Assembly: GCA_039804105.1 (NCBI GenBank)
Contig: JBDRZU010000001.1
Span: 1,024,001 to 1,088,000, forward strand
DNA: 64,000 bases
Direction: 5' to 3'
DNA from: a candidate division WOR-3 bacterium
GTDB taxonomy: Bacteria > Hydrothermota > 32-111
The first letter of the stretch is position 1. Each line of letters begins with the position of its first letter. Below are positions 45,001-48,000 of this stretch, piece after piece. The position numbers were made by a program.

Positions 45001-48000
45001 GATGCCTGCATCCAATATAAAACAAAATCCCCTTTTTTAACTCCATAATCTTTTAGAACTTTTATTCTTTCCTGCTCAACCATATTTAAAGATGGAATTT
45101 TTTAATATAACCTTTTATTAAATTTTTTGGGTCATAAAATTTAACAAGATCTTTTAGCTTCAATTTCTTTAAGGATCTTTTTGGTTCACCCTTTTTATAT
45201 TGTTTGATGAAATCCAGAATTTGAAGTGAACCTTTTTCTATTGAACACTGATTTTTTGCAAACTCATAAGCTTTTTCAGAAATTTTTTCTAAACTCAAAT
45301 CATCTTTTTCAATTTTATCAAAAAAATTCATCAAAGAAACTTCAAAATTGTTAATATCTATTGAAAAAACGCAATCTTTTGGTATATCCTCAAAAGATTT
45401 TTCTCTAATTATTGCGGTTGGTATTCCAAACCCTAAAAATTTTATCAAATTACTAGACATCTCTCCTCTTACGGGATATCTAATGTTTATCGCATAATCA
45501 CATTCTTTCATCAATTTTAAAAATTTTTCATCGTCGACCTCTTTGAAAATCTCACAATACTGTTCAAGATTTTGCTTTTCTATTATTTTTTTAAGATCTA
45601 TATCAACATCCTCACCAACAATCCTTAGTATAATCTGTCTCGTTGAACCATTTTGAAACTTTTTAAAAACTTGTAAAGTTTCCTCTATCATCCTGTCTTT
45701 GGAAAGGTATCCAAAGATTCCAACAGTTATTTTTTCTTTTTTTAATCGATCCACTTTCTCTACCCATGGACATATATGATTTATTTTTAAAACCTTAGCT
45801 TCTGGATTTATTTCTGTTATAAGATTTTTTGCATATTCTGAATGAACAATAAAATGGTTATTCGAAAGAGCAATTTCACGTAGCAAAGGGAAATCAACAA
45901 AAAGGTTTCTATCTTTTCCTTGGTTGTTTAAAAGTTGTTTAATTTTTTGAAAGTCATCCGTTTCATTGAGTAAATATTTCAAATACAGGAATGGTTCTTT
46001 ATGCTGTATAGATCTATAATACAAAAGATCATGTAGATTTAGATCATGAAGAAAAACTATTCCAGGTTCTTTCAATGCTTTTTCATAAGAAGGAAGATGT
46101 AATGGATGGTTTCCGAGAGAATATATTAAAAGATCAAAATCACCATCGCGAACCAAATCGATGTAAATTCCATTTCCATTTCGTGTTGCAGAAACAGGGA
46201 AAAAATCAAATTCTACACTCTTTTTCAACTCTTTCAAAAGCACTTCTGAATAAACCGAAATTCCCGACCTAACAGGTGGAAAAGGACTTACCCACCCTAT
46301 TTTTTTCTTATTCGGGGACGGTGCTTGACTTTTTGACATTTTTCTCCTTTTCCCTTTTATAAATTGTTCCTAAAGAAGACAGTTGAAGTGTTTTAAAATA
46401 TTTTATTCTCGATATTTGCCTATATGTTAAAAGATATTTATCGTGTAAAAAAACAAGTAACTCTGCTCTTAATTTTTTCCAGAAATTTTCGCTAAAATTT
46501 GCTTTTTTAAAGTCAATATTTTTTTCTTTTTCAAACTCATGTATCAACTCTTCAATTTCTAAGTTTCTTTCTTTTTTTGTCCTTATGTTCGTAAAAGTAT
46601 TTTCAGTTTTTCTTCTATCAAATTTTTTCATCGCTTCTTTAAAAAATTCTTCGCTTCCAAGAAATTCTCCAACTCTTGATTTTTTCACAGGTAAATTTTT
46701 TCTCTCCCAAGCTTTCAAAGATTGATTTAGCTGTTTTATATTTCCAAAAAGTTCTTCAACTTTTTCTTTGGCAATAAAACTTTCGGTATCAGAAAAATAG
46801 TGGTTTATACTTGACCATTGATAATCAAACGGATTTTCAACTATATCTGCTTTTACAGGATTTAGCAAGGTGTATATGATAGACATTTTCAAATACTTGT
46901 CATCCTGTATCAGTGTTGATTTAAACCTACTTGCAAAAACATATCCTCTACCTCCAAAATTTTTCCTATAATATATTCCATAAGAACCATCAAGTTCTTT
47001 TATAAACTCTGATAATAAATTTTTATGATTTTTTATAACTAAGTGAAAATGGTTTTTCATCAAACAATATGCATAGATTTCCATGCCATATTTTTTTGAT
47101 AAAATCTCAAGAAGTTCAAGAAAATGTTGCTTTGCTTTTGGATTGAAAAATATCTTTTCATTTTTAAACCCTCTGTTCATAATATGATGGTATGAACCTT
47201 CATACTTAACTCTTGCTCTTCTCATTACTCCTCCCCGTTTTTTAACTTATCATATTTGATAAGGTTACACAAAAATGTCAAAAAGTCAAGCACCGTCCCC
47301 GATAATAGTTACAATTTTTCTTTTTTTGCGGATCAGACGGATTTGAGGGAAGGGAATTTTTTTATCTTTGATTTCATGAATTTTTTTGTAACCCTTTTCG
47401 GTTAGAACAAGATATTTCTCTCTCTTATCTGTTTCTGAAACTAGTTTTTTTAAAAAACCTTTTTTTATAAGTTTTTCAGTGATCTTTGTCATCCTCGGTT
47501 TTGAAACATAAAGTTCTTTTGAAAGTTGTGTAAGATCCATTTTTTTCTCACTGATCGTACACAATACCATCGCTTCATTCATCGTAAGTTTTGTCTCCTT
47601 TTTGAGATTGTAGTCAAAAAGGTAGAGTTCTTTGAAAATTTTTTTAAGATAACAGATTTTTTCCATAAACTTTTAAAATTAGTTAATATTGTTAACTATA
47701 TAACAAAAAATTAAAAAAGTCAATAATTCTCTATTAATCAATAATCTCAAAAATTTTTAAAAATTATGATTTCTAAAAAAATGTAAATTTTTCTATTGAC
47801 ATTTTTCTGAAAAGATTTAAAATTGAAAAAAATCGGGAGTATTATGGATAAAAAATGTTCCATTTCCAGTTTTTTTAACTCTTTTTTATTTTTTTTCGTA
47901 ATCTATCTTTTTCTCACCTACCCTTTTAACATTCAAGAAATTTTAACAGGCTTTCTTGTTTCAATTATTCTTGTGTTTCTTTTTAAAAATTTTCTTGATT

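Follow-up and report, generated by a model that had tools for sequence, protein, structure and literature searches.

The only Y1 transposase gene of this candidate division WOR-3 genome lies between inverted copies of a short repeat, and the locus belongs to the known TIRYT/TIRtron kind; it is not a novel REP. In the reading that we prefer, with a probability of about 0.6, the locus is a TIRtron: a TIRYT gene between terminal inverted repeats (TIRs) of ~30 bp, with the other 38 copies in the genome as its solitary ends, spread and used as joints by the enzyme. As part of this explanation, a gene that is single-copy and vertically kept in the genus is predicted to encode a RAYT-like HUH/Y1 nuclease joined to a DnaA-domain-IV-like helix-turn-helix (HTH). 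We observed the anatomy of the locus, intact catalytic residues, matching folds, a repeat that co-varies with the gene, conserved copies and homology breaks at repeat ends.

The Y1 gene and its flanking repeats

The window is the whole stretch of 64,000 nt that was analysed (C1 positions 1,024,001 to 1,088,000), and coordinates below are those of the window unless a contig is named. The host is an uncultured hot-spring WOR-3 bacterium with a small thermophile genome. The features of the gene locus are as follows.

46308..47225, minus strand: TIRYT gene (ORF) for a 305-aa RAYT-like Y1 (HUH) protein; Pfam Y1_Tnp, E 3.5e-12
46312..46343, minus strand: 3′ TIR, overlapping the end of the TIRYT ORF (10 codons)
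46323..46598, minus strand: predicted C-terminal DnaA-domain-IV-like HTH, residues ~210–301 (VIA-align)
46686..47225, minus strand: predicted N-terminal Y1 nuclease domain, residues 1–180 (AlphaFold2 model, fold match)
47271..47302, plus strand: 5′ TIR, upstream of the gene start, outer end GGGGACGG directed away from the gene

Perfect 25-nt inverted copies bracket the gene (cores 46314–46338 on the minus strand and 47276–47300 on the plus strand), and this gene alone gave a Y1_Tnp match in the whole genome. The initial annotation, which had two inverted copies flanking the only Y1 gene, was correct in this. The 5′ TIR extends over the final codons and stop of a MarR-family gene (47286–47666, minus strand), whose ORF end (...GDGA and stop) falls inside the repeat. 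The sole available start codon of the downstream glycosyltransferase ORF (45086–46339, minus strand) is an ATG within the 3′ TIR. Overlap of the 3′ TIR with the ORF was also found in relatives' loci L032, L033, L034, L035, L038, L039 and L040.

The HUH motif of the protein is H59-F-H61, and the catalytic tyrosine is Y118 within YTLLNPV. Over 48 homologues H59 and Y118 are invariant and H61 is conserved in at least 90%. In a profile alignment the HUH and tyrosine region aligns to that of E. coli TnpA-REP (4er8), and the profile also found 4er8 among PDB sequences (E 7.8e-4), whereas phmmer of the protein against PDB sequences gave no match at E≤1. The AlphaFold2 model has a mean pLDDT of 88.2. 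Its best Foldseek match is again 4er8 (E 1.1e-6). With VIA-align, the N-terminal domain matched 4er8 with Z 17.3 and an rmsd of 2.4 Å over 155 residues, and IS608 TnpA with Z 10.2. A search for related loci in genome contigs returned only distant N-terminal matches in other phyla, at 26–39% identity and mostly over residues ~1–180.

The modelled C-terminal domain resembles the DNA-binding domains of DnaA (8btg, 1l8q, 3pvp and 1j1v; Z 7.8–8.1 over 77–85 residues by VIA-align). Pfam Bac_DnaA_C was found in one of the 48 homologues (E 2.1e-9), and a Pfam search with the C-terminal 136 residues of the protein itself gave no family at E≤10. The fold argues for a DnaA-type HTH, with weak support from sequence.

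A hairpin-less repeat and its gene context

The window holds seven matches to TGTCAAAAAGTCAAGCACCGTCCCC at ≤3 mismatches, with 0.00 expected from 100 shuffles. At ≤4 substitutions the whole 1.81-Mb genome holds 40 copies of this core (28 exact, 10 with one mismatch, one with two and one with three). The conserved block is about 32 nt long and has sharp edges at −5 and +26, reading AAAAA, the 25-nt core and (A/G)A. Its CCCC end is the outer side, with GGGGACGG as the outer tip. A conserved outer half (..CACCGTCCCC) is joined to a lineage-variable inner half, which consists of two direct 4–5-nt units that change together between lineages.

Six copies with their flanks were folded as single-stranded DNA, and the repeat is taken to lack a hairpin because their z-scores (−1.46 to +1.46) were no better than shuffles. 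No self-complementarity was seen in the 25-mer, and Rfam at gathering thresholds gave no match over the whole window. The earlier count of 40 copies of a hairpin-less element is confirmed by these results. To our knowledge, every Y1 enzyme of solved structure recognises a hairpin. Some copies are adjoined by GTAG-tagged hairpins of a distinct low-copy family, none of them at the Y1 gene.

An IS608-like TTAC site had also been attributed to the element. At the left end of IS608-like elements the conserved target TTAC abuts outside, and IS608 and ISDra2 show an orientation bias to replication (lagging-strand template). Here TTAC and 6–8 nt precede the core in 14 of the 40 copies, as judged by eye, and most variant copies of the congeners G002 and G003 lack it. 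Unlike in IS608, the TTAC at the gene's own 5′ repeat is on the inner, gene-proximal side. There is also no replication-strand bias among the 40 copies (19 co-oriented vs 21 anti-oriented, with the origin set at ~279 kb from DnaA boxes and GC skew), so that the attribution did not hold. The sequence TTACAAAAAAA occurs 39 times in the genome, six times adjoining a copy. On the oriC side of the congener G004, TTTACAAAAAAA occurs without a core and was judged to be chance, because TTAC-A sites outside the element show no further similarity.

Read in reverse complement, the repeat contains TTGACT and TTGACA, which are −35-like and at the gene's own 5′ repeat are directed into the gene. Some copies have TTAAAT-like hexamers 17 nt further in, and an inner extension of ~20–45 nt is common to about 15–20 copies. 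We nevertheless consider it very unlikely that the element is a portable promoter. The hexamers aim at the inner (TGTCA) side, which faces a gene start in just 17 of the 38 copies having a neighbour; the −10-like hexamers are weak and inconstantly spaced, and for the Y1 gene the best of them (TATGAT) is 21 nt from TTGACA. An ECF-sigma or sigma-70 promoter on the forward strand of the repeat was dropped, since the spacings misfit by eye.

Apart from the two gene-flanking copies, the window contains the following copies.

30053..30077, plus strand: solitary TIR copy, 51 nt upstream of a UPF0047 gene
31929..31953, plus strand: solitary TIR copy, CCCC end over the stop of a convergent CstA gene
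43665..43676, minus strand: partial tandem duplicate of the TIR outer end (AGCACCGTCCCC and the same next 8 nt)
43687..43711, minus strand: solitary TIR copy between a photolyase gene and a 116-aa ORF
60626..60650, plus strand: solitary TIR copy with one mismatch, 22 nt after the stop of a class-II glutamine amidotransferase gene
61432..61456, minus strand: solitary TIR copy, 141 nt upstream of the same class-II glutamine amidotransferase gene

For 38 of the 40 genomic copies no decayed inverted partner arm was found beyond background within 450 nt. The two exceptions form the sole inverted pair of solitary copies in this genome (C1:1386957/1387220, spacing 263 nt).

With crude ORF calls, the CCCC end is directed toward a gene start in 26 of the 40 copies and toward a stop in 14, close to the earlier 27 and 13. 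The distance from start-facing copies to the starts varies from 20 to 910 nt. Twelve of the 14 stop-facing copies lie −15 to +32 nt from the stop, and four provide the stop codon. The neighbours reported before were found again, and include genes for LVIVD/T9SS cargo, type I R-M, KwaB, an AbiEii-like nucleotidyltransferase, an AbiJ-like protein, DUF2130 and two AAA_14 proteins.

Relatives and cassette borders

We compared the genome (G000) with other genomes of the phylum, all of them MAGs. Copies at ≤3 mismatches of a 23-mer number 40, 35, 24, 25 and 1 in the five genomes of the genus, G000 to G004. One Y1_Tnp match was found in each of G000–G003, so that members with the gene have 24–40 copies; G004 (99% complete) lacks a Y1 gene and has a single degenerate copy, with 3 mismatches. 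Copy number does track the gene, as had been claimed. The counts given for it (39, 34, 5 and 1) were too low because G002 and G003 carry the variant TGTCACACTGTCAAG... (CACT-type), and only the AAAA-type found here had been counted. In G000, G002 and G003 the Y1 gene has the glycosyltransferase and MarR genes as its syntenic neighbours; the syntenic spacer of G004 is ~50 nt long and empty of gene and repeat.

The G002/G003 protein is 65–66% identical to that of G000 and is bracketed by CACT-type repeats. The two variants differ by 3–4 nt, and this difference is common to ~20 copies in G002/G003. Seven solitary CACT-type sites are orthologous to AAAA-type copies of G000. The Y1 gene lies between inverted repeats of co-varying sequence at 11 relatives' loci (inspected in G001, G002, G003, G006, G008, G010, G012, G019, G022, G031 and G033), with both arms at eight and the 3′ arm only at three (L034, L038 and L040). 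This layout bears out the proposed tie between repeat and Y1 gene. Across lineages the repeat has a common architecture, with an A-run, unit-N3-4-unit and then A(A/G)C(A/T)CCGTCCC. Of 40 genomes searched in the phylum, 19 have related forms, and the element is not limited to the genus. In sister genera MITE-like inverted TIR pairs occur, with a spacing of ~85 nt in G006/G009 and of ~385 nt in G010/G007.

Over the 13 sites with an orthologue in G001, 382 of 390 core positions are identical (98%), compared with 2147 of 2655 (81%) in the flanks. Recent movement is not shown, because most copies are at sites orthologous with G001. Clean filled-versus-empty solitary sites number two only, both in G003 relative to G000. 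Copies have opposite orientation in G000 and G003 in three intergenic regions, and simple inheritance fails to account for these flipped copies. A tRNA-tRNA spacer holds a copy in both G003 and G011.

Such conservation would also be expected if the copies were operator sites of a regulon, bound by a domesticated TIRYT or another factor and kept identical by selection for binding. Several features are consistent with this: most copies face a gene start, often with a sigma-70-type promoter some tens of nt downstream (for example TTGAAA-N17-TATAAT at C1:263.7 kb), the protein has a DnaA-type HTH by fold, and the repeat has two direct units, like many operator sites. We consider this reading unlikely. 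It does not fit the copies placed at or near stops, the unfixed spacing to starts, the copy between tRNA genes or the MITE-like pairs; a 3–4-nt change in ~20 copies is hard to reach through site-by-site selection, and homology breaks at repeat ends.

We found these breaks by aligning G000 with G001. Of 25 assessable copies, which are not independent since island copies are clustered, 11 lie ≤150 nt from an alignment break, and six of these ≤6 nt. Random intergenic points near breaks numbered 2.3 ± 1.4, and none of 5000 sets reached 11. The test left out a 33-kb housekeeping stretch that is missing from the G001 MAG, and C1:1018472–1268417. In addition, a 2.4-kb indel lies between two direct copies, and two paralogous PDC-S01 cassettes are 88% alike over 1350 nt, a likeness that begins at the 5′ edge of one repeat and ends ≤2 nt from the next CCCC end. 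TIR ends are thus where homology stops, both between species and between paralogous defence cassettes, and the earlier view that copies mark cassette borders is upheld. RecA recombination between 30–75-bp repeats would give such break points equally.

That recombination is part of another explanation, in which the copies are passive relics of an old TIR-bearing IS and the enzyme is idle on them. The sites held in common with G001 and the single-copy gene agree with it, as do the break points. It is improbable in our view: relics should decay as their flanks do, which the cores have not done, and nearly all copies lack a decayed partner arm. Moreover, at orthologous sites the copies have taken on the variant found beside the resident gene, the catalytic residues remain intact and are conserved, and the gene-less G004 lost or never had copies.

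In the arrays, 6–9 copies stand in direct orientation with single genes between. The likeness to cassette arrays suggests that the repeat could be the recombination site of an integron-like integrase or another transposase, with the Y1 gene as a bystander. This is extremely unlikely, as no integrase, resolvase, other transposase or recombinase was found in 127 proteins around the copies and through the islands, no attC-like hairpin is present, and in several families of the phylum Y1 genes lie between copies of the repeat, whose sequence co-varies with them. It is rather unlikely, in turn, that the TIRYT itself is the HUH recombinase of an integron-like system, nicking the outer end of one repeat and rejoining at the next, so that repeat-bounded cassettes of defence genes and T9SS surface proteins would be excised, duplicated and re-inserted, and old copies rewritten to match those beside the gene. 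Such rewriting and cassette movement would explain the variant switch, the partial tandem duplicates and the repeat-to-repeat limits of the paralogous cassettes.

Known systems and proposed working

Within the HUH/Y1 superfamily, TIRYTs make up a large branch. Two papers, from 2013 and 2018, already describe TIRYTs and TIRtrons, and the element is therefore not the new kind of REP that the initial annotation proposed. In the first, TIRtrons are RAYT-like genes with structure-less terminal inverted repeats and dispersed families (Di Nocera, De Gregorio & Rocco 2013, PMC3733652). In the second, TIRYTs are linked to a C-terminal DnaA-like HTH and equated with TnpA-Y1 subclass 2.1, whose C-terminal HTH types are given as Bac_DnaA_C, HTH_23 or HTH_28 (Quentin et al. 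2018, PMC6006769). The locus shares with these a RAYT-like HUH/Y1 gene with intact HUH and tyrosine, long structure-less TIRs with the 3′ repeat over the ORF end, and, by fold, a C-terminal DnaA_C/HTH-type domain. Its repeats likewise form a moderately abundant dispersed family, in which copies are single, paired or grouped. The TIR motif GGGGWSAS is reported there for the majority of cases, not all; the outer end here agrees at 7 of 8 positions and so does not match it exactly, the comparison being with the motif and not with published TIR sequences. Four further differences were noted: the host, since WOR-3 is not mentioned in the available parts of these papers; the solitary state of nearly all copies; the two direct units of the inner half that co-vary between lineages; and the position of copies at cassette and synteny break points. 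We found no bench test of the TIRYT class in the literature on TIRYTs.

E. coli TnpA-REP is the nearest solved fold. As with REP/RAYT systems (REPtrons) and Pseudomonas REPINs, a single-copy gene, syntenic in the genus, is flanked by inverted copies of a dispersed repeat, and, as in REP/RAYT systems, the repeat variant co-varies with the gene between species. However, the repeat is no palindrome or hairpin, has no GTAG/CTAC head and shows no REPIN doublet organisation. The protein has an extra, putatively DNA-binding domain of ~125 residues, and scored 59.7 bits with NCBIfam REP_Tyr_transpos (NF047646), under the cut-off of 80; the IS200 model gave 23.2 bits. The HUH/Y1 catalytic core is shared with IS200/IS605 elements such as IS608 and ISDra2, from which the locus differs in its inverted-repeat ends without subterminal hairpins and in its single-copy gene.

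Runs of single genes parted by a short direct repeat, with a content that varies between sister species, recall integron cassette arrays. Unlike in integrons, the neighbouring proteins scanned include no IntI-type recombinase, attC hairpins are absent, and every gene appears to retain its own promoter. The copies of G000 are not paired, save one pair, as they would be in MITEs; the pairing is met in G006/G009 and G007/G010.

Under the TIRtron reading, the C-terminal HTH would bind the inner half of the repeat, and the Y1 domain would nick and rejoin DNA at the conserved outer half with its GGGGACGG tip. Repeated action may spread copies and hold them identical to those flanking the gene. The copies could then become preferred joints, at which the enzyme would allow neighbouring DNA to be gained, lost, duplicated or rearranged. 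DNA exchanged in this way would include defence genes and T9SS surface-protein genes.

The locus adds to the TIRYT picture a WOR-3 example in which the TIRs are almost all solitary. The genus is a natural experiment, with one gene per genome, two repeat variants that track two protein variants, one sister species without gene and repeats, and a repeat with a variable inner and an invariant outer half. Together these features make direct predictions on binding and cleavage. Should the enzyme prove to cause the gains, losses and duplications of defence and surface-protein cassettes that end at repeats, this would be a new way for defence islands to turn over. Otherwise, the case still shows 30-bp repeats structuring the variable regions of a small thermophile genome.

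The TIRYT gene and its flanking repeats

The window contains a gene for a 305-aa RAYT-like Y1 (HUH) protein, here called TIRYT. As the initial annotation claimed, it lies between two inverted copies of a repeat of about 32 nt (TIR), which has the 25-nt core TGTCAAAAAGTCAAGCACCGTCCCC, the inner side TGTCA and the outer end CCCC/GGGG:

46308-47225, minus strand: TIRYT gene, 305-aa ORF (Pfam Y1_Tnp, E 3.5e-12)
46314-46338, minus strand: TIR copy on the gene's 3′ side
47276-47300, plus strand: TIR copy on the gene's 5′ side

The source genome (G000) has no other Y1_Tnp match. TIRYT scored 59.7 bits on the NCBIfam model for REP-associated tyrosine transposases, below the cut-off of 80, versus 23.2 bits on the IS200 model. 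Across 48 aligned homologues, H59 and Y118 did not vary and H61 was at least 90% conserved; the profile of these homologues matched E. coli TnpA-REP (4er8, E 7.8e-4), with the three residues falling on its HUH and Tyr segments. An AlphaFold2 model (mean pLDDT 88.2) was then superposed on known structures. Residues 1-180 matched 4er8 with Z 17.3 (rmsd 2.4 Å, 155 residues) and IS608 TnpA with Z 10.2, and Foldseek agreed with a 4er8-like fold of this domain. Residues ~210-301 matched DnaA domain IV (8btg, 1l8q, 3pvp, 1j1v) with Z 7.8-8.1 over 77-85 residues, where Z ~8 is modest for a small helical domain. A Bac_DnaA_C sequence match was found in one of the 48 homologues (E 2.1e-9), and the C-terminus of TIRYT itself had no Pfam match. 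By the source names in a protein search, the lineage belongs to candidate division WOR-3; some sources had auto-named homologues "REP element-mobilizing transposase RayT" and one "DnaA domain protein".

The core TGTCAAAAAGTCAAGCACCGTCCCC matched the window 7 times at ≤3 mismatches, versus 0.00 expected from 100 dinucleotide-preserving shuffles. A pattern search of the whole genome (1,811,800 bases, 30% GC, two contigs) at ≤4 substitutions returned the 40 near-identical copies claimed earlier, of which 28 were exact and 10, 1 and 1 had one, two and three mismatches, respectively. By information content per position across the 40 copies, the conserved block is sharply delimited from -5 to +26 (AAAAA, the 25-mer, A/G-A); almost all its positions are invariant and its surroundings are at background level. 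About 15-20 copies have in common a weaker extension of 20-45 nt on the TGTCA side. The repeat was correctly called hairpin-less, because single-stranded folds of six copies with flanks were no better than shuffles (z -1.46 to +1.46) and Rfam had no match anywhere in the window.

Partial tandem duplicates of the outer end plus the next 5-8 nt occur at window 43665-43711 (e.g. AAGCACCGTCCCC-GATTTTAA twice) and at five loci fetched from relatives (L160, L012, L034, L039 and L167). Processing at the outer end may have left them behind.

Units of this kind have been described. In their passages on the class, Di Nocera et al. (2013; PMC3733652) gave the name TIRYT/TIRtron to RAYT-like genes with long flanking TIRs unrelated to GTAG repeats. 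According to the same passages, many TIRs contain GGGGWSAS, the repeats can overlap the gene's 3′ end, and there are "moderately abundant" TIR families with single, dimeric or grouped copies. The relevant sections of Quentin et al. (2018; PMC6006769) place 20 of 26 TIRYTs in TnpA-Y1 subclass 2.1, which is defined by a C-terminal Bac_DnaA_C/HTH_23/HTH_28-like domain, and those of Bertels et al. (2017; PMC5581495) report highly abundant flanking 16-mers in RAYT groups 2 and 3 only. Judged by the passages on TIRYT/TIRtron, our unit agrees on every testable point except the exact GGGGWSAS, its outer end being GGGGACGG. The proposed "new kind of REP" was therefore not upheld. In full-text searches, the papers listed under the name TIRYT were PMC3733652 and PMC6006769 (two of three found), and nothing relevant turned up on WOR-3 with transposase, repeat and REP.

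The gene order glycosyltransferase - TIRYT - MarR-family is the same in G000 and two other genus members, G002 and G003. In a fourth, G004, the outer two genes are ~50 nt apart with neither Y1 gene nor repeat between them. The G000 unit is seamlessly inserted in this gene pair (window 46308-46343 and 47286-47300): the MarR reading frame takes its four final codons and its stop (…GDGA*) from the 5′ TIR, and the ATG of the glycosyltransferase ORF comes from the 3′ TIR, with GGAG 5 nt upstream. Repeat-encoded GDGA* also ends three further G000 genes elsewhere.

An IS608-like TTAC site had also been suggested. By eye, TTAC plus 6-8 nt was seen upstream of the core in 14 of the 40 copies. At the gene's own 5′ TIR, TTAC lies between repeat and start codon, on the inner side and thus inside the unit. 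The sequence TTACAAAAAAA occurs 39 times in the genome and adjoins a TIR copy at 6 of these places. We therefore rejected an IS608-type TTAC target. Because TTAC is inside the unit at the gene's 5′ TIR, the TTAC-bearing solitary copies look, by their sequence, like 5′ ends with a few inner bases.

The repeat across the genus and phylum

We inspected the Y1 loci of 11 relatives (G001, G002, G003, G006, G008, G010, G012, G019, G022, G031 and G033). All 11 have a TIR at the gene's 3′ end. Both arms are present at 8, as inverted repeats of 15-32 nt (≥18 nt at seven of them), with 96-100% arm complementarity at the five loci scored; L034, L038 and the short contig L040 have the 3′ arm alone. Many ~1-kb contigs of public assemblies contain only a homologous TIRYT gene. 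The TIRs have a common plan of an A-run, two direct 4-5-nt units 3-4 nt apart, and A(A/G)C(A/T)CCGTCCC(C). The paired units co-vary by lineage (GTCA/GTCA in G000, TACA/TACA in G012, ATCCA/ATCCA in G006), and the outer half is nearly constant.

In some relatives the TIRs behave like an IS with its MITEs: they are mostly inverted pairs ~85 nt apart in G006 (7 pairs plus the gene-bearing unit) and G009, and inverted pairs ~385 nt apart in G007 and G010. In G033 the only copies are the two at the gene. In contrast, 38 of the 40 G000 copies have no inverted partner above background within 450 nt. The two exceptions form one pair (C1:1386957/1387220); the gene-flanking copies, ~940 nt apart, are beyond the range of this search.

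Within the genus, the 23-mer at ≤3 mismatches was found 40, 35, 24 and 25 times in G000-G003, respectively, and once in G004; a reversed-pattern control gave 0 in all five. Exactly one Y1_Tnp match is present in each of G000-G003 and none in G004 (99% complete).

The genomes of G000 and G001 are collinear, with ~89% identity. For thirteen copies, an alignment ran across the repeat and ≥60 nt of each flank. Their 30-nt cores were identical at 382/390 positions, and their flanks (100 nt each side) at 2147/2655. No alignment crossed the remaining 27, as the flank was replaced, a G001 contig broke or the region was missing from this MAG. C1:1018472-1268417 (~250 kb, including the whole window) is nearly unmatched in the three large G001 contigs, and the G001 sequence that maps to it consists only of repeat-bounded contigs of 0.6-0.75 kb. 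Since housekeeping genes lie in this region, its absence is probably assembly or binning loss and not a real island.

The TIRYTs of G002 and G003 are 65-66% identical to that of G000 and lie between TGTCACACTGTCAAG… repeats. This CACT-type variant makes up about 20 of their 24-25 copies, and a few copies of the AAAA-type of G000 and G001 persist at sites orthologous to G000 copies. Twenty G003 regions with a non-AAAA copy, in most cases CACT-type, were compared with G000. In seven, a solitary copy matched an AAAA-type G000 copy in both intergenic region and orientation (three confirmed by alignment). Three were in the same intergenic region with opposite orientation (C1:599283, 709648 and 1054053 versus L167, L181 and L178), which could reflect in-place inversion or repeated independent insertion. 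Two sites were filled in G003 and empty in G000, one being a ~30-nt gain in a tRNA-tRNA spacer; the remainder had one or no alignable flank. As a 3-4-nt switch is common to orthologous sites, the comparison indicates copy homogenisation and not independent point mutation.

Genome positions of the repeat

The 40 copies showed no replication-related orientation bias (19 versus 21), with the origin placed at ~279 kb. Cumulative GC skew turns there, outside the window, at a pair of perfect DnaA boxes spaced by 13 nt and two near-boxes (C1:279444-279465), which makes the site a likely oriC. A TIR copy at 279483 lies 18 nt from it, and a second one lies at a distance of 1.2 kb; G001 has kept both, and G003 the first. 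G004 retains the boxes and lacks a 2.4-kb segment with both copies and a CrtC-like gene.

Contig-end copies (C1:1386957-1389684, C2:421996-422116) sit inside longer identical repeats, with 122 nt common to C1:1387220 and C2:421996 and 121 nt to C1:1386957 and C1:1389576. Since G001 links both regions via one TIR copy, the G000 assembly gap is probably caused by this repeat.

A second low-copy family consists of GTAG-tagged hairpins (GTAGCC-GCAACC-TTT-AGGTTGC-G), often inverted doublets, with about 8 members in G000 (C1:470665-470770, 1267634-1267690 and 1289212-1289480, outside the window) and 12 in G001 (C1:97111-97407, C3:273512-275162). Each has a solitary TIR copy no more than ~320 nt away; no member is at the TIRYT gene. 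They may be the hairpin substrate expected for a Y1 domain.

Leaving out C1:1018472-1268417, 25 copies could be assessed against G000-G001 alignment breaks. Eleven were ≤150 nt from a block end (6 of them ≤6 nt), versus 2.27 ± 1.42 for random intergenic points (maximum 9 in 5000 sets). Sixteen were in or beside unaligned DNA, versus 4.4 ± 1.9 (P ~0.0002); such P-values overstate independence, because the copies cluster and G001 is a MAG.

Among individual sites, direct copies at C1:261182 and 263691 in G000 enclose a repeat plus a 722-aa LVIVD/T9SS gene, and G001 has one copy in their place. Elsewhere, 6.5 kb flanked by inverted copies in G001 replaces 7.6 kb of G000, and two G003 synteny break points have TIR copies. 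An array of 6 direct copies at C1:1281-1291 kb and one of 9 direct copies at G001 C3:273-279 kb differ in gene order. G000 also has a pair of paralogous PDC-S01 (AAA_14/DUF4143) cassettes with 88% identity over 1350 nt, and their homology starts at one repeat's 5′ edge and stops ≤2 nt from the CCCC end of the next.

The copies had been said to bracket defence and T9SS cassettes. Their neighbours are mixed: they include T9SS cargo and genes for type I R-M, type IIG R-M, KwaB, SoFic, two PDC-S01, AbiJ-like PDC-S32 and a CARF protein; others, especially inside the window, are ordinary metabolic genes. No integrase or other recombinase was found among 127 neighbouring proteins scanned. A 190-aa LAGLIDADG homing-endonuclease ORF (Pfam E 4.2e-20) lies outside the window at C1:1239214-1239783, amid short unannotated ORFs.

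Possible role of TIRYT

The two-part conservation of the repeat and the two-domain protein suggest a division of labor, in which the HTH would bind the inner direct units and the Y1 domain would nick at the invariant outer half. Compared by eye, the inner units resemble DnaA-box cores (xTxTC[C/A]AxA). Homologous recombination between repeats could account for all rearrangements seen, and the enzyme may or may not have a part in them. The best-supported reading is that of a TIRtron in which the resident TIRYT retains the solitary ends and keeps them uniform, and in which these ends serve as joints of genome variation.
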